Below are positions 28,395 to 63,800 of a stretch of 64,000 nucleotides of DNA, piece after piece. Location of the stretch: positions 32,001-96,000 of the IMG/VR virus record IMGVR_UViG_3300032265_002598. One strand, written 5' to 3'. The position numbers and the translations under genes are program-made. The number at the start of each line of letters is the position of its first letter. Position 1 is the first letter of the stretch. Under the pieces are notes generated by a model. The model saw only the letters and a program-made list of their open reading frames with translations. It was not told the origin of the DNA and did no database searches. Origin of the DNA: a virus (taxonomy: Duplodnaviria > Caudoviricetes).

Positions 28395-28835
28395 ATGCCA
28401 GCAGCAGATTACAATTTCGCTATAGAAAAAGGAACAGCATTCGTTATCGCTTTTGAATATAGAGATGATATGAATGTACCTGTTGATATTACTAATTGGT
28501 GTGCTAGAATAAGATGGATAGAAGATCAGGCAACCCCCACAGTTAGAACTTTTGTAACGAATACACGAAGTAACGAATATGAATTCACAATAGAACCACT
28601 AATGGGCAAAATTCTATTAAAAATTCCAGCAGCTCAAACGGCACTATATAATTTTGGTACTGCCAGATATGATTTTGAGCTACAAGAACCTAATGATCTA
28701 TATAGTGGTGGTGGAAAAAAAGTTTTCAGAATATTACAAGGAGGTGTCTCTTTAGTTTCTAGAAATGTTCCTGGTACAGACGCATTTGAATGCAATATTG
28801 ACACACAGAATGATTGTGGGACATGTGACACATGA
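28395..28835 (+). CDS. Fibre-attachment beta-sandwich protein, paralog of 14626..15033
   Basis: YNFAIEKGTAF..PVDITNWCARIRW..ARYDFELQEP..RILQG. Confidence 0.7.
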   Translation: MPAADYNFAIEKGTAFVIAFEYRDDMNVPVDITNWCARIRWIEDQATPTVRTFVTNTRSNEYEFTIEPLMGKILLKIPAAQTALYNFGTARYDFELQEPNDLYSGGGKKVFRILQGGVSLVSRNVPGTDAFECNIDTQNDCGTCDT

Positions 28836-37800: not shown

Positions 37801-40800
37801 TATTGATATTACTAATCAAAATACTTCATTAGGAGATAGTAGTTATTCTAGTCTATTAGTTAAATGCAAAGGTATTGCTACGGATAAAATTTATGGAGTT
37901 GGTAAACTTAGTTTAGTTGAATTAGATTCCTCATATTTAGCTAGTATTGGAGGCACAACAGTACCATTTCAGATAGTAGATATTCAAGATCCATATGAGG
38001 CCAAAGAAGGCTTTCCTTGGGAAGTGTCTTTTGGCACTATAGGAGGATTAGAGAATCCTAATTATCCTCCAACAATCTTATTATCTGGGTTTCCATCTTC
38101 ATGTTCAGGATATAATCCTAAAATTTCGATAGAAGATCAGGCAGCATGTTTTATTGGCAGAGCTTGGAATCCGGCAAAGAAAAAATGGACTTTCAGTTTT
38201 AGCGGACTTCCACTGTGTAATATCTCAGGCGCTAAACCAATTATTATTACTGCTATTGATACTGATACTACACAAAACTTATATTTGAGTTCAGATAAAG
38301 CACAAGCTATTATTTTATACAAATCATTAATAGAACAAGGCATAAGCCACCCTGGACCTACCATTAAAACAATGCAGGGCTCATCAGATAATATCGAATT
38401 ATCTCCACTATGTGGTCAAGCTCCAATTGATAGCTATTGGCAATTTTATACTAATACAAGAGCCCAATGCCCAGAAGCAACTGGAATATCAGGATGGATT
38501 GTTAGTGGCTCGTTACCTTCTGGTCTTCATTACACAGTATCATTCCCTGGAGGTACTCCAGTCTCTCCATATGATAATCTAGGTACTGGAACTTTAAGAA
38601 TATATGGGGAACCTCTAACATTTGCTAGTGGTGGTTCATATCCAGATATTTTCTTATTCAAAGTTGTTGATGCTAGAAATAAATATGCTATTAAAGAGAT
38701 AAAATTTACAGATATTTCTACAGCTAATCCAGCTTCTCCAATTAATTTGACAGTTTATTTTGATGGTACTAAACCAGCTTATACTCCAAGAGGCAATGAT
38801 ATAGGACAAGTTCAACAACCTTCCGGTACCAATCCGATAGACGCTGATGGTCAGCAAAATTACTGGCCGCCAGCTATATCAGACGCTCTAACATGTACCA
38901 GTATTTTACCTCATTCTAATTGCCAGACTTCTTCATTTAGCTATAGTGGAGGAAATTTTGCAGCAGGGGACTCTAATGTATATATTAATAATATTACCAA
39001 TACTAAACTAACTAATACTGTTGGTAGTCTACTATATATTGAATTCGATAATAATCCTTCTAATACTTTTAACAGTGCTTATATACTAAAACAAAGTGGA
39101 ATCCCCAGCATTAAATATATAACAATTCCAGGCCACAATTTTACCGTAGGATCTGGTAGATTTGTTCAGTCTGCTATTAAAGCAATAAATACTTCTAATT
39201 TAAATAATTTCAAAGGAACTGTAGATTCTAGTAGTAGTAAATCAATACTTGGTTGTGGCATAATTAAGCCTAGAAGCATATATGACCCTAACAATTATGG
39301 TTTATTTGGAAGAATGAGACCTTCATATTCTGCATCTTTACCGGTATCTGGATCTTTTCGTAATGATGATATCTTCTTTACTGGACTTAATATTTCTACT
39401 ATATCAGATTATAGTAGTTATCCTTCGGTATATACTATGAAAACTTCTAATTGTTGGGAAACTGGATATCTTAGAATTAGTGGTATTAGCGTTCCAAAAC
39501 CATCAGTAGAATTAACAAACCCTCCCCCAGCAGATACATTTGCTCCATTTTCATACAATAACCAAGCATATGCTGTTTTAAGTCGTTGCACATATGGTTC
39601 TTCTCAATACGAAAAAGATAAATCAGAAAATTATAGATCAACATCGATTAATTATTTTATTAAACATTGTGTTTCTGGAACTGTATTAAATAGTGGGTCT
39701 GTATCTAGTTTAGGTGCTGGCTCTAGTACTGGAGATACTATTCAATTCAATTATATTTTTAATTCTGGCGCTGTTCTTTCTATGTTTATAAATAAAGCAT
39801 CTGATAAATTTCCAACTTATAAATATAATGCTATGCCATATGCAGAAAATGAATATTTTTGGGTTCATAAAGGAGGAAATAGAGATGACAATCCTACTCA
39901 ATTAAGCTTTCCTCCGATTATTATTACTGGTATTAAAAATAGTATTAGCTGCATGAGCGGATCACCAATATCTGGATATAGTATTAGAGCAGTAGGTGGT
40001 TATATTCCATTTAGTGGAGGCAGTCAAAAAATACCTTTCTATCAATTATCAGATGGTACTGCTTGGGACTTGGTTGACTATCCTCCATTATTTACTGGTG
40101 TATTACAGAAAAAACTTAATGAGAAAATATTAACTGGAACATATCAACATTCTGGATTCTTTGGTGGAACTGACGGTCAAAAACTTAATATTTCTTTACC
40201 ATCTAATGCTAGTTCTATTTTCAAATCCACTGATTCTGTTTTAATAAATTTTAGTGGAGATAATATATCATTTACTACTGGAATGATTTTAAACGATAGC
40301 TATAACAGCACAATGACCTTGCCTTATGTATATAATGGAACATCTACAGTTGGAACAGTAACAATATACGATAAATGCTATATTCAATCAATAGATAGTA
40401 CATCAATACTTTTACATCATAATAATATTCCTTATAAAACAGGAGATTATATAGATATATCAGATAGTGGTTCTCTATCTACAGAGAACAATAATCTATT
40501 ACCATATAATTATAAGCTATCTATAATTTCTGGAGATAATAGCTCTATAACAGCATCTTTCAATGGACCTAGCAGTTATTCTTTTGCTGCTGGATTTAAT
40601 GTTAGCGGTTTTTATGATATTAAGAAAAATGAGTATAATCAAATCAAATTAAACAATATTCTATATAATAAAAAGGGAGAATGGAGATTTGGATTAAGTG
40701 GTACTCCAACAGGCCTATATAAAGACTATAAATATAAAATATTTTCTATGGAGAACAGTGGATTACCAGCATTCTCCGGTACTTCTTTAATTCCTAAAAA

Positions 40801-41170
40801 ATATATAACAGAATACCCTGTTTATATTAATAAACCACTCAAAATTATTCTTCCTCAATCTATCATTAACTCTGGTATTATTAATAATAATGGATCATGG
40901 AGTTTCAGTTTTGAAATTGATGGAGGTCTTAGGCCTATTTATAGTAATACTCCAGAAATTTTAGTTAACAATAGTATGTGCATTTTTTCTAGATCTTTAG
41001 ATACAGCTAATATGAGAGATAGCTATAATAGTACTACAGACAGATTAACTATTACTTTATCTAGTACTAATAGTGTAAATTATGATTGGAGATCTATACA
41101 GACTCTTAATATTAGAGCATATGATGATACTGGTTCCGATACAGTAACAGTAAACTTAAATCAACCATAA
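28832..41170 (+). CDS. Giant 4112-aa virion fibre/adhesin (collagen, fibre repeats, YadA-like, cadherin, many beta-sandwich domains)
   Basis: GTQGNTGPTGPKGDPGKDG; PISKGGTNN; DADLLDG; cadherin FDYETKSSYKIRIRSTD; uninterrupted ORF. Confidence 0.85.
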   Translation: MSIVRVEEEIQPLKYLVITHEVDPETVITTNVIITDNRLNKINLLAIERGTQGNTGPTGPKGDPGKDGLIFDKLPISSGGTNNTSFSSGNIIYYDGNKLSSSNYSVQNILDSAGANASVTGVINGLGLYRDIAGKTVTLGINPGEGLLINDANQIAVDDTIVRRVELDLGGIQGMVPISKGGTNNSSFTGNRLLYYDGLKISSFPLNTGTILLSGTKINIVAGSGLTGGGDLTLPNGSVVLNITGSEDILVTNDSISLSPTGVPGTYSKVTTDSRGRVVSGSSLSSADILAILGYTPWHPGNDGSGSGLDADLLDGFSSSVFFDLSTHTGTIGNTNLPIQTTAGTYTKIQVNDRGIVINGQNNTYNDIVQALGYRPVSISGDTIYGPITINGDVNLNSDNLIVKDNIPVFGTNSSSILPSEPRGFSFIYGGATQRTGILAYYPAQQELRLVTNITADPANVNGGTSTNAFADDINGGDQNAVYLMGNLNGDPNIVLFRGIADNIYISRLNPQVVSGLKRFADGISVNGQVSIISNATQGDPPLNIGGNNNMVVNLNSDLLHGHPGTYYTEAFNMTGLFDYRKVEFNSLEGDLGYIPRFDERTRDPSRTISNSYIRQTGNVIQVTSDANVSIGSTNTGLTDANRSLLVGANNKTYSDNGLAVGSYNIVSGNNSVALNVGSKALNSSSIAAGNYGYTWANNQFSFGAFSETDTANNASAQGQFSTIALYLNGTETNGSWYTMSPPISIPKNKTIAYNLEILLNKAAGTGAALFSFSSGIIKNSTFRDPNNITSIINMTSVLKDSTKQEIYNDSQQRTHYFHYKLDNDTEIQNVKVSNPPLQTLPVLAQNTESLYKYTPEYLSLSGNYVKTNSGNVLLSLQKPLSNGWFYQNINNPNLFIRSYNHALVTGCAVNLNMLTGSIRRPLTKPYTVLNIIDKHNFTVAEHSWKGYFLTNNFFVLDPKEVAETDQINLVKISGNIYTGGNTLSYTTTNPIGSIFSGMLVSFGPDPETYPDSLAQTGKIISVTSDTITFTPNFTGIYDGFSIYGPGFCKITNHSRYVFDSSPTVQFNLGSYGYESVQNISGSIDTIYCGYPTIGLFVNGLTANFSGQQAIISPASINSGTLSLIPRRNYVATYNRQETNFHKYEAIYTQYVSSNGSSKISLFDKNLEAIELPSTPFVYSLVCGQGSDDNSSFSIQNDRLISSESFDYETKSSYKIRIRSTDMSGRNKEKSFTISIGDITGAAFDNIHLNAPNDYSFNLTDIVLSNSIISENSPVGTTIGKITTLGGYSPYLEFATASNSFSGVLVSGSNIISECNPFYKIYSNTNPLRNASVYGTPYTLITGLTIHTSHTGLLSANISGIAESIAVNGFTQTSGYIISGCSPSIIGSIFSGMKLYSNTSGWNPESRVQSITSNSITLNLPFTGTQISPISISVSTLGRSFILDVPFTNSGVVNTLVTYSGIIPNTKNYYPSGLQYFSTTEQSGYCPVDVTKSYVYGFSTQADQYTVSPGYYLTGLVYFYSNTGTSQISVNLPENLYLEADEPSTFLNFISSNTGSIPLDDNYTNLSDLIETGFSVQNAHLYPNGNPNSTGTVLVSIDRNHGFKIIDSKILNQIPVQFVDAPFNNANRIPKNNLFDILGINGNKITIKDSQNYLLTETNKPKYFEKSIEGRYRIANIFNFSGTIFHNYNRIFNIDKADITSYLKKNSVIGTNSSLSYNSNHIFPISITRIDEPFNFGTKIVPGSNIVKYCGESLWQTKIFSGVNLYSTDPLIGSNGSTIIDHFINPTLRSVSLDKTNFEDPQLSYDFSASSTPNTGTDYTKNYIVSGCNDGFLSLSGYCYFYTVSGVGSYPKTINFGPSIGGFTENSGYVISGCSPSPISSLSVGMKLYSTTSGWNPDSIVQSLTSDSITLDLPFTGTQTSPIPIVVTDINRIAYETLSMNPSQATIKRISPSSSTNTAFNTTSLLPASVATIHNGSILNSIPPYPFSIENTKPYASGMKIPVSINIPVNYQDILEIKATSGSVTHVVPSLNSSNQIIYTTGIYPIYNFFDLKNIQATGIIPDKSLVLETNTPNLYNAETSLVVNIKPKIFLNNKICITNGYNGLRKTNSYFSNGDSIYIDNLSLPRSYLNPDDQLTILSYNGNSSFGSGVSRNIRITNSNPRDTAFSGVPANGNNSIILNKYGSPWYNQYRFTNPLGLTLDQQIQPTGYISFVGSVSGNCSIPFNNNIYYHSHGGFTASWPRDPSGTNVPAPQTGIYTIGVHSQNCSSGTLCVRVAVYNDNQFRNIPDIVNRQDIGKQSNVTNTSNGSGYLRPWGVNKKFYFDFSDDTPELNGSYYIADSLDSNNFTLNMPFNADYLGRSGLVYIIDSDYNIKSNRNPNIDNVFQISQGNINIGTNLVDYYINSYNDQSHRWKHLIHFNKDINNFGGYSGTIHYGQAGTQLISLPPDLLKISQIEYMFNDESAYKTVTDNNVTIPSTKNQIYFKFTVSNGAGKWSDNLLRSAPRINIYGFGSYNIDFSNIIYTNSTRQWMIPVVISDVTQYVNNKKITITVNDESGTDSTDIFLTTKILPKIGNAGTTYVYKNSSINWILPFDIKNLSSDSQTYTLSVDNYPGSYYNIIDEELLYASGTKIVVGSAGANTGIFNPILKIRDYVTSEILASQSGTVVVLDSSQSKPIYSINPQGLDNDIYIDITNANDVASFSFFIPAVLDSQSNPVVSFTNTSSLSISSSIEYSTSSQRYRVTALVSGLAGYYPSINANIAISQPVIQSDDSINWVRYTKNQAFNLTLYKRISINKTELIEPLVYDPAGPWALQFKIQNGIGSHRSDLPPKVRLSNLPTIGNYSSQPLEYLLFTKYDEINHLWLVSVDGKKDIFGKETEVLGFRDIQVYAEDGVSSSTSIIRLFFTKQQYLDNIKSIIYATPNNSYQSNLDIKQAPPPPEDLPQVAVAASPLTENTVQLTRSYAKYDKDLSLWEYAYSGAPLTAKWDASIDITNQNTSLGDSSYSSLLVKCKGIATDKIYGVGKLSLVELDSSYLASIGGTTVPFQIVDIQDPYEAKEGFPWEVSFGTIGGLENPNYPPTILLSGFPSSCSGYNPKISIEDQAACFIGRAWNPAKKKWTFSFSGLPLCNISGAKPIIITAIDTDTTQNLYLSSDKAQAIILYKSLIEQGISHPGPTIKTMQGSSDNIELSPLCGQAPIDSYWQFYTNTRAQCPEATGISGWIVSGSLPSGLHYTVSFPGGTPVSPYDNLGTGTLRIYGEPLTFASGGSYPDIFLFKVVDARNKYAIKEIKFTDISTANPASPINLTVYFDGTKPAYTPRGNDIGQVQQPSGTNPIDADGQQNYWPPAISDALTCTSILPHSNCQTSSFSYSGGNFAAGDSNVYINNITNTKLTNTVGSLLYIEFDNNPSNTFNSAYILKQSGIPSIKYITIPGHNFTVGSGRFVQSAIKAINTSNLNNFKGTVDSSSSKSILGCGIIKPRSIYDPNNYGLFGRMRPSYSASLPVSGSFRNDDIFFTGLNISTISDYSSYPSVYTMKTSNCWETGYLRISGISVPKPSVELTNPPPADTFAPFSYNNQAYAVLSRCTYGSSQYEKDKSENYRSTSINYFIKHCVSGTVLNSGSVSSLGAGSSTGDTIQFNYIFNSGAVLSMFINKASDKFPTYKYNAMPYAENEYFWVHKGGNRDDNPTQLSFPPIIITGIKNSISCMSGSPISGYSIRAVGGYIPFSGGSQKIPFYQLSDGTAWDLVDYPPLFTGVLQKKLNEKILTGTYQHSGFFGGTDGQKLNISLPSNASSIFKSTDSVLINFSGDNISFTTGMILNDSYNSTMTLPYVYNGTSTVGTVTIYDKCYIQSIDSTSILLHHNNIPYKTGDYIDISDSGSLSTENNNLLPYNYKLSIISGDNSSITASFNGPSSYSFAAGFNVSGFYDIKKNEYNQIKLNNILYNKKGEWRFGLSGTPTGLYKDYKYKIFSMENSGLPAFSGTSLIPKKYITEYPVYINKPLKIILPQSIINSGIINNNGSWSFSFEIDGGLRPIYSNTPEILVNNSMCIFSRSLDTANMRDSYNSTTDRLTITLSSTNSVNYDWRSIQTLNIRAYDDTGSDTVTVNLNQP
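32934..34606 (+). repeat. Internal ~195-bp diverged direct repeat (copies ~32934-33126 and ~34411-34606)
   Basis: SGYxISGCSPS..GMKLYSxTSGWNPxSxVQSxTSxSITLxLPFTGTQxSPI occurs twice. Confidence 0.85.
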
Positions 41171-42624: not shown

Positions 42625-45066
42625 ATGGCTACTTTATTTTTTGAAGGCTTTGACAAAGGAGTAGTTTTTAATGAACTAGATCCTAAGTACTGGTCTACTC
42701 AATTCAAATATTTTCCCAAATACTCTTTTGGTGGATATGCTCCAACTACTATAGAAGATCAAGCTATGGATGGAATATTTGGAAACAATATAGGTGCAGA
42801 TAAATTGGCTTTCATATATAAATATTCTACTCCAGTATCTATCAATGGTTTGGTTCCTAGCGGAAGATATACCGACAATAGAGCTGTTTTAGATGGCCAA
42901 TATGGTAGCACAGCTTATACTAAAAATTCTTATCCTGGTTTTGGAAGTCCACCAGGATTTTTAGCATTTACTAATATAGAACTAGAAAATAGTACTAGTG
43001 TAGAATATCCAACATACTTACAGACTAGTGGATTTCCAGTTTCAACAGGAAACATATCATATCTGTCAATGAGATGTCTTGGTTTGGAATCAAAACACAC
43101 AGACTACTCTTCATATCCTTATCGACACACGCTATTCAGTTTTAATAGCGGAGATTTTCCTTCTTTAACTGTTAACATTGTTAAAATAACTGGAAATAAT
43201 TTATTATCCATTAATAATAAGAAAGAAACATTAGCAATAGAGATACAACAGAATGATCAAACTCTTGGTTATTTTGACCTTAATCTTTCTGGAATAATTA
43301 GTCGATACCAGATAAGTTCTATTTTTAATTCAAGCAATAATAAAATACTAACTATTACAGATACTAATAGAGGAGATGGATTTAGTGCTATGATTAGTAG
43401 ATGGTGTCATTTAGAATTTTCAGTAGATAAATCCACAAGTCCTCCTTTGTTATATATTAATGTCGAAGATATTAATTTACCAGTAGTAAATACAGGAATA
43501 GCTAAAGAACTATGGGATACTAGTCTACCAATCAGTGGTTTTAATTTTAATAACTTGCGTTTTTATAATAGAACATACTCTAGCTCTATAATGAATGGAG
43601 TTACTGCGTCTATCCAAGGACAAGATATATGGAAAGATTCATGGTATTACATGAATGGAAGAGTATGGTTGTTAGACGACCTGGCTCTGGTAGATAACAC
43701 AGATCCCCCTCCTTCATATTGGTTGGGGAGTACTGCTAAAGTGATGTCAATATATCCTGGCGTTAGTGGTAGCTTAGTAGATAATTATGGTTTTTCTGAT
43801 GGATTATTAAAATGGTTTAAAGATCCAAATGTTCGTTCTATATCAAGGACTGTTACTGATGATTCTACATATGTACAAACATATTCTGATTATAGTAGTC
43901 ATCGACGAGCTTTTTTAATTCCAGATGCTGATGGAAATAATATAGAAACTATAGATAGCGGTAATATTGATGCTATTATAATGACCAAACCAAACTATCT
44001 TTTAAATACCCTGTACAATTCTTTCGACACTGAATCAATTTGGAGAGGTAATTTTAATGATGCTATTGGAGGAATGAAAGTTTATAATAGTGCTAGAAAA
44101 AAATATCTTGATACAAAATTTATTAATGTATTATATTCAGGACAAAGCGATATTTATGAACCAAACATTTCTTTGCTTTTGCATGGAGATTCTAGTCCTA
44201 TCATAGATAATGCCACAATTCCAAAAACTCTTAATATTTATGGACAAACTAATTCTACAGCTTCAATTAGTAAAATGGGTACTCGTAGTATTAGTTTTCC
44301 AAATAAGAATTCTTACATATATTTAAATCATCCAGACCTATCATCTTCTCCTTTTACAATAGAGTCATGGGTTTATTTTCCAAATAACACAACATCTGTT
44401 TCTTTATTTGATAAAGTTTCTTTACCAGCATTAGATACTATTGTTGTTGATCCTCAAGATTTTAATTCTAAATTTTATTCTTTTAGTGCTAATATTAGTG
44501 GAATCCAGTATATATCTGATTATGCGAATAATTATAACCCACATAAAGTTATTAGACAATTAATTTTTCCAAGTAATGCATCCACTGGAGTTTGGCATCA
44601 TGTTGCTATTACTAGAAATTCTAGCAATAATATAGTATGCTATCTTGATGGTCAGTCAGGAAATTCGTATAAATTATCAACCAGTGGAAACTTTTTTGGT
44701 GGATCTGATTATGAAACAACAGGAACATTTAATACTATTTATACTATTCCGAATGCTGTATCTGATATATCATCTTATTTTATTTCCTATAACAGCACTA
44801 AACCATATCTTAGTATTGGTAAAGATGGATATATAGATGAATATAGAATAACTTCGGGCATTAATCGTTATCCAACTAATTTTAATGTTCCAACTTTACC
44901 ATTTAAAACTAAAGCAGATGACTATGTAGAGATTGGTCCTGCTCATAATGTTACTAAAACTAGCTATAAAACATATCAATATTATGTTAATCAAAATCCG
45001 ATCACACAACAAAACTGGATATTACCAGATGTTACTGGTTTAGTTTTTGGAGTCAAAAAACTATGA
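42625..45066 (+). CDS. LamG/concanavalin-A-like virion protein
   Basis: PFTIESWVY...WHHVAITR..CYLDG...GYIDEYRIT...RYPTNF. Confidence 0.8.
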   Translation: MATLFFEGFDKGVVFNELDPKYWSTQFKYFPKYSFGGYAPTTIEDQAMDGIFGNNIGADKLAFIYKYSTPVSINGLVPSGRYTDNRAVLDGQYGSTAYTKNSYPGFGSPPGFLAFTNIELENSTSVEYPTYLQTSGFPVSTGNISYLSMRCLGLESKHTDYSSYPYRHTLFSFNSGDFPSLTVNIVKITGNNLLSINNKKETLAIEIQQNDQTLGYFDLNLSGIISRYQISSIFNSSNNKILTITDTNRGDGFSAMISRWCHLEFSVDKSTSPPLLYINVEDINLPVVNTGIAKELWDTSLPISGFNFNNLRFYNRTYSSSIMNGVTASIQGQDIWKDSWYYMNGRVWLLDDLALVDNTDPPPSYWLGSTAKVMSIYPGVSGSLVDNYGFSDGLLKWFKDPNVRSISRTVTDDSTYVQTYSDYSSHRRAFLIPDADGNNIETIDSGNIDAIIMTKPNYLLNTLYNSFDTESIWRGNFNDAIGGMKVYNSARKKYLDTKFINVLYSGQSDIYEPNISLLLHGDSSPIIDNATIPKTLNIYGQTNSTASISKMGTRSISFPNKNSYIYLNHPDLSSSPFTIESWVYFPNNTTSVSLFDKVSLPALDTIVVDPQDFNSKFYSFSANISGIQYISDYANNYNPHKVIRQLIFPSNASTGVWHHVAITRNSSNNIVCYLDGQSGNSYKLSTSGNFFGGSDYETTGTFNTIYTIPNAVSDISSYFISYNSTKPYLSIGKDGYIDEYRITSGINRYPTNFNVPTLPFKTKADDYVEIGPAHNVTKTSYKTYQYYVNQNPITQQNWILPDVTGLVFGVKKL

Positions 45067-45995
45067 GTGAATACAAAAGAATAAGATTACGAAGAGCACA
45101 AAGCGGAGAATGGTTTTCAGCTAATCCAACTCTTGGTCTAGGAGAACCAGGATATGAAACCAATTCACAAAGATTAAAAATAGGAGATGGAATATCTGCA
45201 TGGTCTGGCTTAGACTATATAAAAGTTCATCCATCTTCTATATCATATCCTAATATTTTATTTTCTATTTATGATGGATCTGAACCTAGAATAAATCTGA
45301 ATCTATCTAGTGGAGACTATTTGAATGTTATAGGTTCCGGTGACACAGAAGTGAAATATAATGCTTTTAGTAACACAATGACTATTAATACTCAAGCAGG
45401 ATCTTCATTTCTTACTGCTGCTAATATAGCAGATAGATTAGGCTATGTGCCACAAAGATCTGGTCAGTATAGCTTATTGGGTCATACTCATATTATTTCA
45501 GAAATCAATGGATTATCTGGAATATTAGATAGCAAACAGCCTAGTGGCAATTATGCTTCTAGTGGACATATTCATACTTTCTCTATAGGAGATGGGACTG
45601 CCAGTAGAATTAATTATAATTCTAATGAGAGGCTAGATATTATTGGTGATGGATATACGAATATAAATTATAATAATGCTAACAATAGTATTACTATCAG
45701 TTCAATTGGTAATAGTGGAGTAGTATCTTTTAATAACAGAACAGGAGTGGTAAATCTTTCTTTTCCTGATGTAACAGGAGCATTAAATTATACCCCTCAA
45801 CCAGTTGGTAATTATGCTCTTTCTGGCCATCATCATCCAGTATCCGATATTACAGGATGGAATCAATTTCCATTTAGAACCCCACCAGCTTCTTTATCAC
45901 AAGGAATAGCAGGAGAAATTTGTTGGGATTCATCTTATCTATATATTTGTATAGCTAGTAATCTATGGCATAGAATACCTCACTATGGCTGGTAA
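45063..45995 (+). CDS. Mtd-N fibre protein with HxH boxes
   Basis: RIRLRRAQ..EW..NPTLGLGEPGYETN..KIGDG; C-terminal GEICWDSSYLYICIASNLW. Confidence 0.82.
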   Translation: MSEYKRIRLRRAQSGEWFSANPTLGLGEPGYETNSQRLKIGDGISAWSGLDYIKVHPSSISYPNILFSIYDGSEPRINLNLSSGDYLNVIGSGDTEVKYNAFSNTMTINTQAGSSFLTAANIADRLGYVPQRSGQYSLLGHTHIISEINGLSGILDSKQPSGNYASSGHIHTFSIGDGTASRINYNSNERLDIIGDGYTNINYNNANNSITISSIGNSGVVSFNNRTGVVNLSFPDVTGALNYTPQPVGNYALSGHHHPVSDITGWNQFPFRTPPASLSQGIAGEICWDSSYLYICIASNLWHRIPHYGW

Positions 45996-51808: not shown

Positions 51809-54800
51809 ATGGCTAAAGGATTTAATTTAACAGCACAAATTAATTTACAGGGACCATCTAATATTAATGTTATTGTATCTAACATTAAAAAACAATTAGG
51901 CACCATTTCAGCTAATGTTAATTTAAAGATAGACCCAGCATCGGCTAAAACAGTTGCCAGCTTAAATTCTTCTTTAAATCAACTTAACTTAACCCTTAAA
52001 GCGACGGCATCTTCTGCAACAAATGCTGCTGATGCAGTTAGGGATTTACTATCAGCTATGAATGGTGTTGCATCTGTAAAGTTGCCCAGTCAAGCAGCAC
52101 AAGTATCTTCATCTCTTAATAATGTAGCAGCTTCTTCTGCTAGCGCCCAAAAAGCACTATCTGCTTCAAGAACAGAGATAGAAGAATTTGGTAATCAAGC
52201 TGGTTTGGCAGTAAGAAGATTTGCTGCATTCAGCACTGTAACATCAGTAATATATGGATTAACAGGAGCAATTAGAGGTGGAATATCCGATTTTATTGAT
52301 TTTGATAAACAATTAACTAGAATCGCTCAGGTTACTGGTGAAAGTAAAGACGGATTAGGTAGACTAAAAGGAACCATAACAGAATTATCTACAGGTCTTG
52401 GTGTTACAGCTAAAGACTTAGCTGGCGTATCAGTTACACTATCTCAGGCTGGTCTTACCGCTAGAGATACTGAAAAAGCATTAAGAGCATTGGCTCTTAG
52501 CGCCCTAACAGCATCATTTGATGATATGAATCAGACGGTAGAAGGTTCTATTGCTTTGATGAGACAGTTCAAGATCGGATCTAATGAATTAGAAGCGGCT
52601 CTAGGATCTATCAATGCTGTATCAGCAAAGTTTGCAGTAGAATCTAGTGATATTATTGCTGCTATTCAGCGTACTGGTGGTGTGTTTGCCGCAGCTAGTA
52701 GAGGAGTTAGTGAAGGTAAAGATGCTCTCAATGAATTTATTGCTGTCTTTACTAGCGTTAGAGCAACAACCAGAGAAAGTGCTGAAACAATTGCTACTGG
52801 TTTAAGAACTATCTTTACCAGACTCCAAAGAGGAGACACTATTGAGGCCCTTAAAGAATATGGTGTTAATCTTACAGATTTAGATGGCAAATTCGTTGGT
52901 GCTTATAAAGCTGTTCAGTTATTAGCTGAAGGTTTAGGACAGATCGACCCTAGAGACCTTAAATTCTCCAAGATTGTTGAAGAGCTTGGTGGTTTTAGAC
53001 AGATTGGTAAGGTTATTCCATTAATCCAAGAGTTCACAACGGCACAACAAGCACTACAAGTTGCTCAAGCTGGACAAGGCTCATTAGCTTCTGATGCTGC
53101 TAAAGGACAATTAGCATTAGCAGTACAAATTAGTAAAACAAAACAAGAATTTTTATCTTTGATTCGTAGTATTGGAGATACTGATAGTTTTCAAAAAATG
53201 GTTACTGTTGGTCTTAGTTTAGCTAGTGCTTTAATTAAGGTAGCCGACGCTGCTAAAGGCATTATCCCATTAATAGGATTATTTGCCGCATTCAAGGGTG
53301 CTTCAGCTATACGACAGTTTAGTGCTGGATTTGGAACTGGCTTTGGTGGAGGAGCAGCTAAACAAAATAATAGACCATTAGGTTTTGCTACCGGTGGTTT
53401 AGTTCCCGGACAAGGTAATTCTGATAGTGTATCAGCAAGACTAACTCCTGGTGAGTTTGTTGTGAGAAAAAGTGCTGTTAAAGCTATTGGCTCAAATAAT
53501 CTACATAGAATGAATAGATATACAACTGGTGGAATTGTTAATCAAATAGGTGGTGTTCCAGGAAAAACAATAGTTCAAAATAGCAAAAATCAATTAGTAG
53601 GATTTAGTCCAAAAGACACCTATTCTATATCAGATGGTTCTGAAAATCTTATTATTAAATATGATAGTAAAAAACAAAATTATAGAGCTAGAGGTAAAAT
53701 ACTTGATCCTTCTTTAGTTAATCGTCTTTTTAAAAACAATTTTCAATCTACTGTGTCTTGGGAAGAAATTGTTGCCAAAAGCTATAATGGTAGATTAGTA
53801 AATGGAAAAAATGATAAATTCCCAATAGATATTATTGCTGGAAATACTTTAATAGATGCTAAATTTAGGCCAGAAGAATCATATAAGCCTATGGATGCTT
53901 TAGGAAAAGCATTAAGTTATCGTCTATATAAAGCATCGGGAGGTAGATACAACTATGAAAATAATGGACAACAAAAACTTAAACTTAATAGTTTAGTTAG
54001 AAATACTCTTACAGAAAATCAAGATAATATTAAAGATTCTGGTCAGATAAAATTTGTTTATCCAGAATTTCAAGATATTCCCACAGACTTACCCGGAATT
54101 AAGTCTAATGTAACAAAACGACAAGCTCAATTATCTAGCAAAAGAACAAGTTCAATGCAGAGGGGGTATGCTCAAAGTTCAATTGACATATTCGGTGGAT
54201 CTACTTTCAGTGGAAATAAAACAGATATTAATACTTTAAGCCCCTACGATAAAAAAAGTAGATTGTTTGGAGGAGGATCAGTTCGTAAATTTGAAAATGC
54301 GGGCTTAGTTACTCCAACAGCAGGAACAGCAGCTAATGCTAGTGAAATATTAAAAGTACTTACTTTGCCAGGAGCAATGGCAGCTAGTGGAGCAAGTGCT
54401 GGGGATATACTGAAAATACTAAAGAAAAAAAATGTACTTACTCCAAAAGAACAAGATATCAAAAATAAAATTTTAGGAGCATATACTAAAAAAACTTCTG
54501 GTATTAGATTAGCAGAGAATGCAGATATACAGAAGGCAATTACCGAAGGTCTTTTATTTGGTGCTGCTGGATTTAAAGGTAGAGCTTTTCCTATCACACC
54601 AAGAATGGATATTCCAGGATTAAAGAATGCAGTTAAGGTTAGAATTACTAGTGGTGTTTTAGATTCAGAGATGTCTAAAAAACTATTAAAGAAAATGACA
54701 GTGGGACTTAATAGTGTCGCTAATAAAACTTCAAGAAATATCATGATTAAAGATATCTTGAAACAAACTGGTCCATTATATGCTGATTTTGATAGAACAT

Positions 54801-57800
54801 TAGCCTTCGGTGCTGATAAAATTTTAGGAGATCCAACAAAGCCAAAATATAGTGAATTCTCTGATAGAAGCAAAGTTGCTGGGGCTTTAAGAACAGCTAA
54901 TCTTAGCATTTTAGGTAAAGCTATTGCTAGTACAGTAAGAAAAACCCCAGAATTTGCTAATAACCTAAATGTAATTTCTGCTAGACCACAATCAACAATG
55001 GATTTAATAGCCGGATGGTTAGCTAGCAAGGGCATTCCAATTCCATTAAATAGAATAAAGGGTGTTGGTGGGCCACAAGTTACTCCAGAACAGATTGCTA
55101 GTTTAAAGGCTGACTTGATGAATCCAGAGGGGGCCTTTGTTGACGATGATCCTAGAAATATTGCAGAATCAGAAAGAAGAGGAATCCGATCATATCTATA
55201 TAAAAAACAAAATGTTGGACCAACAGGAAGAAAAAAGCTTGGAGAAGCAAATGCTAAGGGTTATTTAGCCGAAAGAGTAATTCATGAGCTGGGCGGTCCA
55301 ATAGCTAATAAAGCTGCGACTAACTATGGTATCGACTTCCCAGATGGTTTAAAAAGTGCCGCGAAATACTTTGGTATTCCATCAGATATTCCAACAGACG
55401 CTAAACTTACTTTAAATGGTCCTGCTGAACTGAAGAGCCAGATTGGCAATTATCTCAAGGTGAGAGGATATGCTGGTGGTGGTTCTGTTACAGCAGACTA
55501 TTATAGCTTAGAAAAAAGTAGTGGATTAAAAAGTTTTGAATTTGATAATGCTGTAAAGTTTGCTAAAACTATGAATTATAGCATGTCAGAATTTCAAACA
55601 TATCTAAAGAAACTGCAAGTAGAAAAACAGAATAAATCTGGTGTTAAGACAGATAAAGATGCTCTAAGAAAATCTTTAATATCTGGAACCCCAACTGCTA
55701 CATCTAGACAAATGTCATTAGCAGAATCACTAAAAGGTCCAGCAGATGCTGGCTATAGACCAATATTAACAGAAGCTCAAAGAGTTGCTGCTGCTCGTGC
55801 AGATGTGAGAAATGCAACAAGAGGATTTGCTTCTGGTGGACTTGTTCCCGGAGTTGGTAATCAGGATACTGTTCCTGCTAATCTCAATGTGGGTGACTTT
55901 GTTATTCGTAAAAAAGCAGTATCTACTATTGGTGCTAGTAATCTAAGTTCATTAAATAAAAGAGCTAGTGGCGGAGAAATAAGCAACACCGTCCCTGCAC
56001 TATTAACTCCTGGTGAGTTTGTTATAAATAGAAAAACTGCTAGTAGCATAGGAACAGCAACACTTAATAGATTAAACTATGCAGATAAGGCTTCTAAATT
56101 TAATAATGGTGGCCCAGTAGGAACTGTTCAAGAGTTTGCAATAGGTGGAGCTGTACAAAGACTATTCTTTGGTGGTCCAAGCTTACCAGCTAAACCCTCT
56201 AATCCTACAGAGGGTAATGTTCAAATTTCTACTACTGTTGGTGACCAGCTTAGAGGTATGGTAACCGCTTTAAATGACTTAGGAATATCTTCATCTAAAA
56301 CAGCAGAGATTATTAAAAAGGGTGGACAGATCAGTTATCAAGCTGCTATAAAAGCTTATTCTGCTGATATCCAAAAAATGAGATTAAATGGTGCATCTGC
56401 GATACAAGTTGCAGACGCAGAGAGAAAGCTTAGAGATATTAGAGCAGACGCAGCAAAGAATATCGAAACTAGAAAAAAACTCTCTGGAGTTGGTGCAGAT
56501 CAATTACAGAACATAGATACCTCAGCACAGTTTGAGAAAGAAAGATTAACAAATCAAAAGAGAAATAGTTTAAGAAAAAAAGGAATTACTGGAGAAGCAG
56601 CGGATAAAGTATTAGAAGGTAGTGCTGCTAATATTGAAAAAATAGCATATCAAAGTGCAGCAAAATCACAAGGTGTTGATCTTAAAGGTATGGGTCTAAA
56701 TGGTCAGGATATGCAAAAATATATCCAACGATCAATGATGGATGCAAAAACTTTACAGCAAATGAATGCTCAATATTTACAAACTAGAAAGAAAGATTTA
56801 GAAGCAGTAGGACATAGTGCAGCAGAAGCTCATAAAATAGCTCAAAAAGAAATCAAAGAAAGAGAAGCCATACTTAGAGATGTTGCCAAGTCTCGTGGAA
56901 TGGCAGATCCTACAGGGAAGGGATCGTCTGAAAAACTCAGCCAAAGAATGATGATGGCCGGTTTTATGCTTCCTATGATAGGTAGTGCAGCATCTAGTCT
57001 TATTAATCCTGAAAGTAGTGCAGCGAGTGCTGCAACATCTGCTGGTATTCAAGGAGTAACTAATACAGTTGGTATGGGATTAGGCACAATGAGTATGATA
57101 CCTCTTGAAAAACTAGGTAAATTTGGTGGAATACTAGGTATGGCAGCAGTTGCAGCAGCAGCTGTTGGTCAAGCTATGATAGATGCTCGTAATGCTACTA
57201 TAGAGTTTGAGAAAAAGATGGGTCAGAATAAAGCAGAAAAAGCTTTAGAAGAAGTAGGTAAAACTTTTGAAAAACTTGAAAAAGATATAAAGAATATAAA
57301 TCTTCAGAAAATTATTATAACTAAACTAGCAGAAGCTAGTACAAATATCAAAAGTAGTGTAGAAGCTGATGTTAAAAGAGCTAAAGCATATTGGACTAAT
57401 TTATTAGATGCTTATTTCGGTGGAGCAGGAACATCGCAAGGAAATAGGGAAGCAGCAGAAAGAAGTAAAATTTTAGAAAAAGGAGGAGTAGGTAAATATT
57501 TTCAAGCTACAGGTTTTGGTCAAGCTATGATGGGTAATGTTTCTGGTGCTGATGCAGCAGCTAGTGCGTCAAGATCTGCACAAATAAGAGGTTATGCTCC
57601 AGAAACAGCACAGCAAAATGCCAAAATATTTGCTGATACTGCTAGCCAAATTAATCGTCTTATAGAACAAAAATTTAAAGGCGGAGAAAGCTTAGAAAGT
57701 ATTTTAACAAGCATTACAGATGCTTCACAACCAGAATTTCAACAGTTTGCAGAAGTCTTAGCTAAATCTAATGCTGTTATAGGACAACAAATTTTGTATA

Positions 57801-60800
57801 TAGAGTCTGATATACATCTTAAAGCCGATCAGAAAAAAGCACAAATAGAAGCTATACAAGCTACCTACGCTGAAGCAGAGGCCAGAAGAATCTATGGTGT
57901 TGTTGCTAGACAAAAAGAAATAAAATCTTTAGAACAATCGACTGGCTTATTTAGTCGTAGTCTTGAAAGAATGTATCAGAATATGGAACAGTCCATAAAT
58001 AGGACTATCTTTACTTTAGACAAAATGAGTAAAGAATTAGACTTAGTAGTTTCTTCTTTTAAGGGTGAAGCTACAGTAGGCCAAGGCTCATTAGACAGTA
58101 TTAATATGCTACAGAATCCTCGTGCTTATTCTAAGAATGATAGAGAATCTGCTCGTGATCAAGCTTCTAGTTTCTTTTCTGGTAATAGAGATCTAGTTAA
58201 AGGATTATTAAATGCTGGGGATAATTTAGAACAAGTTATTATGACCACTTTAAGTAATACTTTTAGAGATAATCCAGCAGCTAACAACGAACAAATTGGT
58301 ATTGCTATAGAAAGAAATGTTAAAGATCAACTAGCTAATTTATCTTTACCATCTGATGTTGGAGATAAGCTTGCTGCTGAAGTTCAAAAGGCTTTGGGAG
58401 ATTTAAGAAAAGAAGATAATAGTAAAGTTGATTTTGCTCAGTTAGCAGAAAAAATACCTCAATTATCAAAAGTTATTGAGAGTGCAAAAAGAGCACAAGA
58501 AGTAGCAATAAAAGCATTAGAAAATTGGCAAAATGCATTAAATAACTACTCTACTAGAACTAATCAGCTTGTTGATTTGCAAGTAGACACTAATAATAGA
58601 CTGAGAAAGTCAACTCAAATTTTAGCTGATAGTCAAATAGATTTAGCAAAATCTCTTGGTCAAGAAATAGGAGTATCTGATACTAGAAGAGTAGCAGAAT
58701 CTAAAACAGGACAACTAACTGGTGGATTAATAAGTCCAAAAGATATAACTGATAATATCTTAAATCTTGAAGGAAATAGAAGAGCACAAGAAACTGGATC
58801 TAATATTGCTAGAAATAGAGGAGCTAGTGGAGTAGATGATTTTATGAATATGCAGAAGGGTCTAAAAGACACAAATACTGCATTAAGAGAAAACTATGAA
58901 GCTCTCAAAAACTTAGCAGATAATTCAGATGTAGCATCAGCTGCTTTAGGTAAAATTCAAGAAGCTCAACAAAAAAATCAGGGACGAGTTAGTTTTATCG
59001 AAAAATTAGTCACCAGTACACCAGATGAAATGGATGGTTTAGGTAAAGCACTCGGTAGACTACAAACTAATATGAATGGTCAAGTTAATACTATTCAACG
59101 ATCACAAGGAGCACAGCAGGCTTATTATGAAGCTTTACAAAATGGAGCTTCTGGCTTTGAGGCTATGAGAGCTGCTCAAACTGCATTTGCTAATGAGAGA
59201 AAAGAAACGCTAGGTGCTCTTAATGATATTATGCCTTTCTTAGGAAATAATAAACAAAGCAATAATATTAAAGCTAATGTATTAGAAGGTATGTTAAAAG
59301 AATCTGGTCAGGGTGTTTCTCCAATAATGCAACAGGTATTAACTACCCTCAGAAATCCACAAGCTGATCCAGAAACCCAAGCAGCTATGGCTCAGTATCA
59401 ACAGGCCACCAACTTACAATCAGAAGCTAATAGACAATTAGCTATGTTAAATACTAATTTAGCTGGTCAAATAGCAGACGCTTCTGCAAAAGCTTTGAAA
59501 GACGCATTAACTGGAACAGCACTAACTTTCCAAAATGCAGAATTAACAAATATTCGAGACGATGTGGCTATTATCAAGAATTTAATAGGAGCAGGAACGA
59601 CTACACCGACAACCAAAGCTTCTGGAGGTGTTATATATGCTGCTGCTGGTATGGGTATTGATTTTTCTCCAAAGGGTACTGATACTGTTCCAGCAATGTT
59701 GACCCCCGGAGAATTTGTGGTTAATAGAGCAGCTACCCAGAGAAATCTCCCACTATTACGTTCTATCAATAGTCAAAAACATAGTAGTGGTGGTCCTGTT
59801 AGATATTATGCTGGTGGTGGATATGTTAGTAGTATTATGAAGGATCAAACAGATCTTAGGGGAGAAGGACTTAAAGTAACAGATAAAAACTATTTAGATC
59901 CAGATAGTGAAGATTTTAAAAATCTAGTTAGTGATAAATCTCCAACAGTATTTAGTGGATGGAAAAACTATACTAGAAGTCAGGCATCTGGAGAAGGAAG
60001 AAAAGAAGGAGATAACATATATGCTCCTGCTCGTTGGTGGTATGGAATAGCTGGGATGGGTCCTGGAGAAATTGCTTTTAATAACAGAGGGGCTTTATTA
60101 GCGGGTGCTGCTCCAAAAATTGAAGTAACTCCTGATGGATATTTCCAATATACCGCTACTCAACCAACTACAGTAGATCCTATTAATCAAGTTCAACCTA
60201 TGGGTCTTTTGATGTCTAAGGGTGTTATAGGAACAAGACCTATTCGACAAGATCAAATAATAAAATATAAAGAGAAAATTTTAGCAATTAAAAGAAATAT
60301 GGGGGCTCAGGCTTGGGGAGATGACCCATCAGATTTTGATATAGGATCACTTGAAGATATCAATGGTGTGCAAGGGAAAAGTGGTGGGCCAGGTAAAGAG
60401 TACGATCCTAATATCAGTATTGGTAAAAATATTGGTATAATTATTTCTCCCAATAAAAATAGGCCAATAATTACTCCAGTATTTCCTTCTGAAGAAACTA
60501 CAGATATACAAAAAGTTTGGTTGGAAATGACTACAGCTGCTAGTCTTGTTCCAACAGGATATTATGGAACTATAGTTTCTCCACACGCAGTTGAGACAGG
60601 AGGGACGTTAAGAACAGACAACAGCGAAACAGTTCCGGGTGCTAATAATAGTAACGCTGGTCAAGATATTAGAGATAAGGGATTAAAAATTGATTTACTT
60701 AGTACCCCAAGAACTAGCGTTGTTCCAAACGCAGCTATGGCTACAGTAGAAGCTAATTGGGTTAGAGCAAAAGCAGATATTGATGCTAAAATTAATTCTC

Positions 60801-63800
60801 AGAGAATAAATACAACATTTTATAAGGATACTTTAGCTTCTGTTGAAGCTGATAATTTTAAATTTGTAAGAACAAAGGTTAACAATAGACTAGATCAATT
60901 ACAAAAACAACTACAAAATCTATACGAAAACCGTAGTTTGGTAGAAGATATTGGCCCATCTAAAGAGTTTCTTGATTTAGAGCCTTTAAATGCTCCAGAT
61001 CCTATTGTAGATTTGCATGTTTTATCAGCTACTAAAAATAATGAATTACGACAAAAAATAAAAGAACTTCAAGCTATTTCTCCTACTATTCGTGAAGATA
61101 AAGGTTGGAGAGGATTAAATGTTGGTACTATAGGAGCAGCATTTGGTGAAAAATGGATGGACGGTAATGCTATAGATATTCAAGATGAAATGGCAGCTGG
61201 ACCCTTAAAAGAATTTCCTTGGATTGCTAATCTTGATCCAACCATTCTTTTAGCTAATTTAGCTGCTGATATAAGAAGGAAACAAGAAGACTTAGCTAGT
61301 GGTAAAGAGTATGGATTTAATGTTAGTCAAATTACTCATTCTGTTAATGAAAAATTACCAGCACCACTAGATCAATATTCTCTAAAGCATACCGAACAAT
61401 ATTTAAAATATACTGGTCCTCTTTGGAATCCTGATGATCCTAATGCTGATCCTTCTGGTTTCTTGACAGACAATCCTCTTAAAGATTACTTTGTTGTTAA
61501 ACCCTCTCCAGCTAAAGAAGACATGTTTCAATATGCCGGAGAGGCATTTAAAAATCAAAGAAATTTTGCTAGTAAGAATAAACCATTTGATCTTTCTGAT
61601 TTAATCTCTAAATTACAGCCAGCACAAACTCAAACTATAGCAGATTATATTAAGAATCCTACTGACCCACAATTAACCACTGATCTTAAGAATATTGCTG
61701 TTGGAGTTAATCCTAGTTTAATAACAGCTAAAACTGTCGGTGTTAGTAAACCAATTGGATTAGAAGGTTTTGATTTATTTTCTCAAGAAGATAATACTCC
61801 AATTAATCTTAATATTGGTAGTTATTTAACTCATGCAATTGAAGAGTTAGCACAAGAACAAAAAAGAAAAGCTTTAGGAGTAACTGGAGAAATAGATAAT
61901 GCTAAGGGGCTTAGTATTGGTATTGCAGATACTGATAAACAAAAGGCTTCTGTTAATCTAACTCGTGGAGCATTAAATGTTTTTGGTAGATCAAAGATTC
62001 CGGGATTTGCTAATGGATGGTTAGCCAGATATATTGGTAGAATGCCAAGCATATTAGGTATGGCTAAAAATAATAATATTGTAAAATCTGGTACTTCATA
62101 TATAGCCAATGTTTTCAATGAGGCTGGTGCTTATGCTAGTAAATTATTTCAAATGGCTCGTAATCCTCAACAATATAATGCTCTCAAAGAAGCATATGTG
62201 ATGATCTCTGGGGCTACCAGCGCTTTTAATGGATTATCCAATGGAGATACAAGGTTCTTAAAACTACTACAAGACCAAGGAGACTATTCAGCTCTATTTA
62301 GATCTTTAGGAGCAAGTTCTAGTTTCCAAAAAGCAGCAAATAATGAACTAACAGCAGACTATCAAGCTCAATTGGGTCAGGAACTTAAGGGATCAAAGAT
62401 TAGAAAAGTCGGTGCTGATGGTTCACTAAGTTACGCTGATTTCAATAATTCTGTACCAAAAACTTATCAAGACTTAGTAGATACAGCACTTAATCCATAT
62501 AATGAATTTACTAGTCCTTCTATTCGTAAGGGATTGATTAATACATTAATTGCTGATATTTCTAATGGTAAAGATAGTTTAGGAATGCCATTCTTTGATA
62601 AAAGAACTTTGGACTATATTAATAATAATCTTAGAACTCTACAGTCTTGGTACGGTGGTGATGGTAATGCATGGCCCGGACAAGACTCTTTTTATGACGA
62701 AACTTTAGATGCTAAGATCAGAACTGATAGTGTTATAAATGCTCTAAATAATAATGCTGCTGGTGGATTATTAGATCAGGCTAATTTAGCTAATACACAA
62801 TTGGGTGTTGCTACTAAATTTGGTAACTTGCCAAGTGCTCAATGGTTTGAGGCCAGAAAGATTGCACAACCTCAATTTAGAGCTACTGGCGGCATGATCT
62901 ATGCTTCTGAAGGCCAGATGATTAATTTTCAGCCCCGTGGCACAGATACCGTTCCAGCAATGTTAACTCCCGGCGAATTTGTTGTCAATAGACAAGCCAC
63001 CCAAAAGAACCTCCCATTGCTACAATCTATTAATAATGGTAATCATTATTCTAAGGGTGGTCCTGTTAATTATCTATCAGATGGTGGAGAAGCTGCCCCA
63101 TTTAATGCTATAACTGGCAATAGAGTCAAAGAAAAACCAGAAGATAAAGATTCTCCACTAACTAAATATAAAATCAGCTCAGTACTTTATCCCTATGTTA
63201 GTTATCCATTTGATGAGAGAGGATATTCTCAGGATTTACCTCCAGAACTAAAAATGCTTAATACTTTAGGGGGTTATGGCGGTGGAATAGGATATACAAA
63301 TATTTTCTTTGATACTGATTTAGCTAAAAGTTTGCGGTCTATCAGAAGTAATAAAAATAATCAGTATGCAACTAGTACAGCAGTAAATAACAGTTCTGCT
63401 GAGTTTATTAAACAGTTTAAATTTAGAGATATTGATAATAATGATAAATTAACTGGCTTTGATTTTTCTAGCTTTTTATCTGATAGTGATAATATTTTAG
63501 GTTTAATAGATCCAGATTTAGGTGATGGATTTGCTCCTAAAAATCTAATAGCATGGAAAAAAGCAGAAGATAGAGTCAAGGCCAGATCATCTGCTAAGGC
63601 TGTTATTGCTAATTTAACACCAGACTTAGAAAATATTAAAGCTGTTATACAAGATCAACATCCAGTAGATGGTTCAAATAATACTAATGATCGTAATTCT
63701 TATGGGGCTCAAGGTCAAGCTGCAATAGCAATGAGGATGTTGATTTACAATGTAATAGAAACATGGAAAAAAGATTCTATAGAAAGTATAGAGGGTCTTG

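Follow-up and report, generated by a model that had tools for sequence, protein, structure and literature searches.

A giant tape measure protein of an uncultured phage with predicted nuclease and phosphatase domains between spacers related to a lambda gpH motif

The window analyzed here is a stretch of 64,000 nucleotides, bases 32001 to 96000 of the 201,067-bp virus record IMGVR_UViG_3300032265_002598, which carries direct terminal repeats. From position 51809 to its end at 64000, the window holds an open reading frame (ORF) for a giant tape measure protein (TMP) that continues past the window end; the full gene spans genome positions 83809 to 100848 (window-equivalent end, 68848) and encodes 5,679 amino acids. 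Unless stated otherwise, coordinates are those of the window and all features described lie on the plus strand. The region under study, residues 526 to 1457 of this single TMP of an uncultured 201-kb phage, appears to contain, in order, a nuclease-type domain (N1), an alpha/beta domain (X), a capless HAD phosphatase domain, a small domain with an E-D-(D/E)xK motif (N2), and a helical segment (Y), set among glycine-marked spacers. An earlier note, made from the sequence alone, had proposed a polyprotein-like carrier of one HAD phosphatase and two nucleases between repeated spacer modules. We consider it reasonably probable that the TMP carries built-in active enzymes in the tail and that these are brought into the host at entry.

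The identity of the protein as a TMP is clear from its N-terminal part. Residues 189 to 382 (52373 to 52954) match PF10145 (PhageMin_Tail, the TP901-type TMP core) with a Pfam score of 81.6 bits against a cut-off of 33.2, in agreement with the TP901 core that the earlier note had recognized, and PHROG tape-measure families match residues ~24 to 520 (E values of 1e-11 to 1e-26). The core is followed by a hydrophobic and then a glycine-rich stretch (residues 464 to 525; 53198 to 53383), the same layout as that which precedes the motif in lambda gpH.

Six glycine motifs punctuate the studied region, and all six that had been read from the translation were recovered: FATGG at 53384, YTTGG at 53519, FGGG at 54266, YAGGG at 55469 (previously placed at ~55472), FASGG at 55826, and FAIGG at 56135. 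Glycine pairs as such are not enriched in the TMP (49 GG dipeptides versus 41 expected). The pentapeptide [FYM]xxGG occurs 13 times, compared with 3.3 ± 1.8 times expected from 1,000 shuffles, and in more than 150 relatives it averages 15.2 copies against 3.0 expected, with the consensus (F/Y)AxGGxV. Four of these motifs delimit a repeat module of ~65 residues with the pattern GG-x-V-Y-A ... G-T-D-T-V-P-A-M-L-T-P-G-E-F-V-V-N ... L-P-L-L-x-x-I-N ... Y-x-x-G-G-x-V. The TMP has nine copies of this module, at residues ~526, 1340, 1384, 2605, 3693, 4847, 5049, 5263, and 5513, every one with a domain E value of 1e-19 to 1e-24 against the module hidden Markov model (HMM). The remaining two motifs, FGGGSVRKF at residue 820 and YAGGGSV at residue 1221, are "half-modules" and form the ends of the first and the last globular domain; the positions matching both half-modules are conserved in relatives.

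Within the studied region, module 1 (FATGG ... TPGEFVV ... YTTGG; residues 526 to 575, 53384 to 53533) is homologous to residues ~735 to 790 of lambda gpH. The first half-module is the spacer FGGGSVRKFENAG (residues 820 to 832; 54266 to 54304), which marks the downstream limit of a stretch that diverges in relatives: in their alignment the slot end GGxIQKF is conserved, and identity returns at residues ~821 to 836. The YAGGGSV spacer (residues 1221 to 1227; 55469 to 55489) is the upstream edge of an indel cassette, and its GG is present in at least 90% of aligned rows. Modules 2 and 3, delimited by the module HMM, stand in tandem (FASGG ... FAIGG; residues 1340 to 1447, 55826 to 56149).

Judging from its distribution among protein sequences, this spacer is an old and widespread tape-measure element that has been multiplied in the giant-TMP family, and is not unique to this phage. 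Among solved TMP chains, the module profile, which was built from 101 copies, matches mycobacteriophage Douge gp16 (E value of 3.7e-9; two internal copies, at residues 959 to 1034 and 1411 to 1463) and lambda gpH at residues 748 to 788 (E value of 2e-3). Module 1 is 41% identical to lambda gpH in an alignment over gpH residues ~710 to 800, BLASTP against the C-terminal part of gpH gives an E value of 3e-7, and the module motif of gpH is immediately preceded, in the sequence, by a glycine-rich run. The module is also found in TMPs of Gordonia, Rhodococcus, and Nitrincola phages, including Gordonia phage Clawz, where it lies at residue ~1194 of 1727. A further gpH-type module was seen in SSM2_012 of Synechococcus phage S-SM2, a gene that is annotated merely as a transmembrane protein and takes the place of gp29 (tape measure/hub) in T4-like cyanophages; the motif thus spans contractile and non-contractile tails.

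The cassette that follows module 1, residues 576 to 819 (53534 to 54265), is hypervariable and holds N1. Its signature, E...PD...(D/E)xK, comprises E652, P672, D674, D683, and K685; in 19 aligned relatives E652, P672, D674, and K685 are invariant, and position 683 is either D or E. The AlphaFold2 (AF2) model of N1 has predicted local distance difference test (pLDDT) values of 85 to 97 over the domain. A structure search with VIA gave weak matches (Z scores of 2.0 to 3.6), yet 23 of the 23 chains above a Z score of 2 were PD-(D/E)xK nucleases, including FAN1, BspD6I, Hjc, FokI, HindIII, NgoMIV, NucC, Can1/Can2, McrC, a CdiA toxin, and viral cap-snatching endonucleases. The invariant signature and the uniform class of these matches uphold the first of the two nucleases that had been proposed, and we classify N1 as a putative PD-(D/E)xK nuclease-type domain by its signature, the fold match being weak. 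A hypervariable domain that nevertheless keeps its signature looks like an arms-race or conflict protein.

Domain X (residues 833 to 984; 54305 to 54760) was modeled as an alpha/beta domain with pLDDT values of ~80 to 93. No family or fold could be assigned to it in the fold-search lists, which were filled by the adjoining HAD domain. The latter (residues 985 to 1133; 54761 to 55207) is recognized by both its motifs and its fold. The HAD motifs occur in order, namely motif I (D993-x-D995-x-T997), motif II (S1057), motif III (K1100), and motif IV (D1112-D1113), and they are close to invariant in 147 relatives: among 149 aligned copies, D993 and D995 are kept in 148, T997 in 146, K1100 in 144, and D1112 and D1113 in 148 to 149, while the consensus shows the motifs TARPQST and FVDDDxxN. 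The AF2 model of residues 825 to 1344 has a mean pLDDT of 80, with ~85 to 97 in the HAD part. In the VIA comparison, which covered 50 HAD structures with Z scores from 12.3 to 8.0, the best match was the 3'-phosphatase of T4 Pnkp (Z score of 12.3), followed by Pnkp1 and T4 PNK (both 11.3), AphA (10.0), and then dozens of HAD phosphatases with Z scores of 8 to 9. Foldseek lists from the PDB and BFVD consisted almost solely of HAD or PNKP-phosphatase proteins, and the named BFVD matches were phage PNKP phosphatase domains. The HAD phosphatase of the earlier note is therefore borne out by a HAD fold, found with both VIA and Foldseek on the AF2 model, together with a complete and near-invariant motif set. 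The modeled shape is closest to that of polynucleotide 3'-phosphatases, with a small margin over generic HAD phosphatases (Z scores of 9 to 10), so the substrate class is to be taken as a lead. A 263-codon ORF on the minus strand (54244 to 55035) lies wholly within the conserved HAD-coding part of the gene and is most likely a chance frame.

Directly after the HAD domain, N2 (residues 1138 to 1220; 55220 to 55468) is a domain of ~85 residues defined by the conserved motif E1155 ... D1176 ... (D/E)1197-x-K1199. This motif is kept in 180 proteins. Among 184 copies, E1155 is kept in 165, D1176 in all 184, and K1199 in 180, and position 1197 is D or E in 183 (D in 105 and E in 78). N2 was the second nuclease of the earlier note; that claim stands for the conserved E-D-(D/E)xK motif and goes no further than the motif level, and we describe N2 as a putative nuclease domain with a conserved, catalytic-looking motif. 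An hhalign comparison placed the motifs of N2 and N1 in register with a probability of just 9%, and the idea that the two are duplicates of each other was dropped on that basis. Beyond the YAGGGSV spacer lies the helical cassette Y (residues 1228 to 1339; 55490 to 55825), which is present in some relatives only.

N1, the HAD domain, and N2 have no match in Pfam, nor any among PDB sequences, with which the cargo block, N1, and N2 were compared by phmmer and by profile; the fold evidence for N1 and N2 is weak. Such domains might be inactive relics that add length or bulk to a very long ruler. We find this hardly credible, since the catalytic residues, those of all four HAD motifs included, are near-invariant across proteins that are otherwise 27 to 40% identical, and since the alternation of D and E is typical of working PD-(D/E)xK sites.

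Word-indexed and exhaustive searches retrieved more than 240 relatives, nearly all of them 3,200 to 7,900 residues long, with PF10145, and encoded on contigs of up to ~250 kb; more than 150 of these giant metagenomic TMPs, on contigs of 100 to 250 kb, follow one common plan. Relatives carry 0 to 11 modules (median, 5), the first directly after the core and the last ~170 residues from the C terminus. When residues 576 to 1344 were compared exhaustively with 1.84 billion representatives by phmmer, 95 matches were obtained, nearly all to giant TMPs or to short possible fragments, and no clear free-standing relative of the cargo block was among them. The TMP gene had no blastn match in 50,697 phage records, tblastn against phages matched the module and never the cargo, and a scan of GTDB genomes with the N2 motif found no relative.

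Comparison among these relatives reveals where the TMP varies. The distance from module 1 to the HAD block ranges from 98 to 2,839 residues, and the intervening sequences fall into at least 23 types, counted by coverage-based clustering; the pattern YP[IV]D...(D/E)[AV]K, that of a divergent domain as in N1, is present in 52 of 152 slots. In relative P0097, this position is occupied by an exotoxin-type ADP-ribosyltransferase (ART; PF03496, 29 bits against a cut-off of 23.4), and in P0172 by an SNase-like domain between YAVGG and FAIGGLVQKFEGGG (19.9 bits, just below the cut-off), which is flanked by an element like the FGGGSVRKFENAG spacer. Modular variation among homologues, which the earlier note had made a condition of its proposal, is thus seen directly, with an ART in one relative and an SNase-like domain in another occupying the slot that separates module 1 from the HAD block.

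Pairwise comparisons locate the edges of this variation. P0004 is 85 to 98% identical to the TMP over residues 240 to 560, 15 to 28% identical over residues 561 to 811, and 85 to 100% identical over residues 836 to 1196, the low-identity stretch being bounded by YTTGG at residue 571 and FGGG at residue 820. The same relative lacks residues ~1216 to 1316, a stretch bounded by YAGGG at residue 1221 and FASGG at residue 1340, and returns to ~80% identity over the tandem modules. P0003 is 97 to 100% identical over residues 1 to 540 and 17 to 30% identical in N1; identity shows further collapses right after module 4, and a deletion lies between modules 6 and 8. A swap of cargo between conserved spacers had been set as a test beforehand, and the outcome is positive: in both relatives identity collapses exactly between the glycine motifs. 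Because the breaks in identity fall at the spacers, cassettes change with their boundaries at the spacers, and the glycine-marked spacers are probably recombination joints at which divergent cassettes meet conserved sequence.

Exchange does not extend to every domain. The HAD domain and N2, which had been counted as enzyme cargo, are not swappable but a conserved family core: among 158 giants, N2 is present in 155, the HAD domain in 126, and X in 70. A fixed core of this kind suits a reading in which the targets of the nuclease-type and phosphatase domains belong to the phage itself and not to the host: the domains would serve tail assembly or process the phage DNA end, for example by trimming or dephosphorylating the leading end. 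The closest HAD shapes are indeed nucleic-acid end-healing phosphatases, TMPs touch the genome end in lambda and DT57C (PMC13033339), and the present genome has terminal repeats. N1, by comparison, evolves like a conflict protein, with 15 to 30% identity between otherwise near-identical TMPs and its signature kept, and the exotoxin-type ART and the SNase-like domain in the slots of relatives have no obvious role in assembly; action of the domains on the phage itself is in our judgment unlikely.

We favor instead the delivery of enzymes into the host. TMPs occupy the tail tube and exit from it earlier than the DNA does (PMC12617516, PMC13033339, PMC10770324), and for this reason the domains would travel with the ruler ahead of the genome. 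The proposed enzymes would be made as part of the ruler, stored with the TMP in the tail, and carried out with it, before the DNA, when the tail opens. They would then reach the cell envelope or the cytoplasm ahead of the genome, and their targets at the entry site could be phosphodiester and 3'-phosphate ends of nucleic acids; possible purposes are end repair, counter-defence, or host take-over. Nucleic-acid ends are suggested as substrates by the two nuclease signatures and by the resemblance of the HAD model to PNKP; a periplasmic role of the domains is possible as well. The spacers, in addition to bounding the cassettes, may double as cutting sites.

Several considerations weigh against delivery of active enzymes by this route. 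All known relatives are metagenomic, and the phage itself is known from sequence alone. N1 resembles known nucleases weakly, with a Z score of at most 3.6, and Foldseek comparison of its model with the PDB, AFDB clusters, and the Atlas gave nothing significant. The N2 model, a helix, bridge, strand, and helix, is too small for the full four-strand core, and the module was modeled as a monomer with low confidence. TMPs may end in the periplasm or the membrane, which would limit access to nucleic acids. Furthermore, by our estimate, three or six folded domains of 20 to 45 kDa do not fit side by side in a lumen of ~4 nm, so storage would require the domains to be unfolded or staggered, unless they are located elsewhere. 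Finally, Pfam searches found no processing protease in the TMP, its neighbors, or the genome, whether JAB, C48, or any other peptidase; a phage-encoded GG-specific protease was dropped as a candidate, there being no JAB (PF14464) or C48 (PF02902) domain in the genome.

The same missing protease bears on whether the TMP is cut at all. It is quite possible that the modules and glycine marks serve as docking points, flexible joints, or recombination joints and that the TMP stays whole, its enzymes working while tethered to a trans-envelope channel; this alternative concerns only the polyprotein part of the proposal. In ordinary TMPs without known multi-site processing, the module occurs once or twice, internally (Douge gp16, Clawz, and the cyanophage protein at the gp29 position), the similarity breaks at the marks are explicable by recombination alone, and the authors of the work on Thermus phage P23-45 picture an enzyme attached to the TMP pore (PMC10770324). 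On the other side, invariant GG pairs at every domain edge exceed the needs of a linker, T5 pb2 is also cut (PMC12617516), and in lambda gpH, which holds the closest homologue of the module to have been studied, that homologue adjoins the glycine-rich stretch where gpH is converted to gpH* and gpHC. That cut takes place in a region rich in glycine close to the C-terminal end, by a protease and at a site that are both unknown (PMC12617516), and gpHC remains attached to gpI in the lambda tip (PDB 8IYK; PMC12617516, PMC11101478).

Cutting of the giant TMP at several of its marks is plausible by homology with lambda, and we put it forward tentatively. A more extended version of the release of effectors would take the (F/Y)AxGG marks and modules for genuine signals of processing at multiple sites, with the lambda gpH-to-gpH*/gpHC cut as their homologue; the TMP would split after assembly or ejection into free effectors (nuclease, phosphatase, ART, and others), and the first cassette would track host defences. 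As a whole this version is doubtful. If multi-site processing were true, however, it would define a tail-lumen effector-cassette system and would suggest which sequence determines the cleavage of TMPs in lambda-like phages.

As a whole, the TMP is built as a chain of cassettes enclosed by (F/Y)AxGGxV glycine marks, which at nine places take the form of the module. Residues 1448 to 2604 (56150 to 59620) form a second tape-like block that is common to 133 of 157 relatives, has the highest share of helix-forming residues in the TMP, and contains hydrophobic stretches at residues 1714 to 1733 and 1769 to 1794. The earlier statement that helical or transmembrane tape sequence resumes at ~56200 to 59600 is thus supported indirectly, through this composition, the two hydrophobic stretches, and the conservation of the block. 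Module 4 (residues 2605 to 2672; 59621 to 59824) and module 5 (residues 3693 to 3762; 62885 to 63094), both delimited by the module HMM, enclose block B3 (residues 2673 to 3692, 1,020 amino acids; 59825 to 62884), whose first ~350 residues are strongly diverged from those of the closest relative. Pfam searches of the whole TMP and of nine sub-segments found nothing beyond PF10145 and a pair of EF-hand calcium-binding motifs at residues ~4216 to 4265, past the window end and in a later cassette (PF13202, E value of 2e-7; PF00036, E value of 1.8e-6). The EF-hand pair is also present in a few relatives, and when N2, B3, and B4 were compared by feature with the ESM Atlas, EF-hands were all that turned up.

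On the same strand as the TMP gene, the large terminase gene and genes for several fibre-like proteins lie upstream, and four further giant ORFs lie downstream. PHROG and Pfam searches gave almost nothing for the neighboring genes, and the immediate neighbors had no match. The four downstream ORFs (genome positions 100818 to 120194) are consecutive, encode 1,466, 538, 1,831, and 2,614 amino acids, and occupy the hub/tip position; none has a PHROG match, and their sole Pfam match is a beta-roll just under the cut-off. Upstream, the large terminase subunit is encoded at 7061 to 9097 (phrog_2, E value of 2e-24), and the two ORFs that follow it (9154 to 11358 and 11362 to 12972), where the portal would be expected, match nothing. 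No sheath family match was found in the genome, and a contractile tail was dropped from consideration on this ground.

A second giant ORF at 28832 to 41170, encoding 4,112 amino acids, has no PHROG match and looks like a giant fibre, with an N-terminal collagen-like G-x-y run and a repeated "...SxGGTNNxSF...YYDG" unit; it contains neither gpH-type modules nor an RNA polymerase motif. Fibre-like proteins encoded at 15317 to 16882, 22119 to 25160, and 45063 to 45995 have in common one N-terminal segment of ~50 residues, which matches the N termini of many PHROG tail-fibre and structural-protein families and is probably a shared virion anchor.

The system that emerges can be placed beside several known ones, each of which resembles it in part. 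In lambda gpH, the surroundings of the motif parallel those of module 1 element by element: a hydrophobic stretch comes first, then a glycine-rich one and FATGG, followed by a GEFV hairpin, a helix that ends in NL-x-R-L, and YATGG-x-V. gpH differs in having one copy near its C terminus and no enzyme domains, whereas nine copies are distributed along the 5,679 residues of the giant TMP. The HAD domain resembles the T4 Pnkp 3'-phosphatase and Clostridium thermocellum Pnkp1 in its capless DxDxT HAD fold (PDB 5UJ0, 1LTQ, and 4XRP; Z scores of 12.3 and 11.3 over 126 to 127 residues, root mean square deviation of 3.2 to 3.4, and 11 to 13% sequence identity); unlike those enzymes, it has no kinase or ligase partner in the TMP.

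Enzyme domains embedded in TMPs are also known from mycobacteriophage TM4 and T5 pb2, which carry cell-wall hydrolase motifs (PMC12619734, PMC12617516) and whose domains act during entry. There the target is peptidoglycan, whereas the predicted domains described here belong to enzyme classes that act on nucleic acids or phosphate esters. TMP-like carriers with exchangeable functional domains are likewise found among contractile-injection effectors, namely, Sle1 (PMC13277306) and a Streptomyces davawensis effector (PMC11126660), which are loaded in a tail-like tube and ejected. These, however, are bacterial devices with much smaller effectors and a C-terminal functional domain.

The polyvalent proteins described by Iyer, Burroughs, Anand, de Souza, and Aravind in 2017 (PMC5512222) unite several unrelated conflict enzymes (ARTs, nucleases, and others) in one huge polypeptide, the proposal being that this comes in together with the DNA and is split up upon deployment. 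The giant TMP likewise combines several unrelated, predicted enzymatic domains in one giant phage polypeptide. It differs in that a built-in zincin-like metallopeptidase (MPTase) is typical of polyvalent proteins, whereas the TMP has no peptidase or LPD-type Pfam domain, and in that the carrier here is the tail ruler itself; the polyvalent-protein paper does not mention TMPs. Traces of polyvalent-type domains amounted to a chance-level LPD39 neighbor and a sub-threshold ART-PolyVal match in relative P0006.

The closest precedent is gp96 of Thermus phage P23-45, a 5,002-residue TMP with an N-terminal virion RNA polymerase for the transcription of the pre-early genes (Chaban et al. 2024, PMC10770324), with the enzyme proposed to act at the TMP pore (PMC10770324). 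An enzyme on a TMP has thus already been published. Both proteins are giant TMPs of long-tailed phages, bearing an enzyme or predicted enzyme domains, and the enzyme of gp96 works at the very start of infection. In gp96, however, there is one two-barrel RNA polymerase at the N terminus, whereas predicted nuclease-type and phosphatase domains follow the PF10145 core here, in exchangeable cassettes fenced by glycine marks and gpH-type modules. A TMP-fused RNA polymerase of the P23-45 kind was considered and rejected for the present protein, which has no DFDGD-type motif. In the literature, which we covered incompletely, we found no paper on TMPs with nuclease, HAD, or ART cassettes and none linking such TMP spacers to the lambda gpH motif. 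Collectively, our analysis extends the single published case of a TMP-fused enzyme, that of P23-45, to a large uncultured family of more than 150 giant TMPs, in whose exchangeable slots phosphatase, nuclease-type, ADP-ribosyltransferase, and SNase-like domains appear to be carried, and it links the slot boundaries with a motif that also occurs in lambda gpH, where the glycine-rich stretch in which gpH is cut lies just upstream of it. Hypervariable N1, in particular, could point to new counter-defence activities that would be delivered before phage gene expression.

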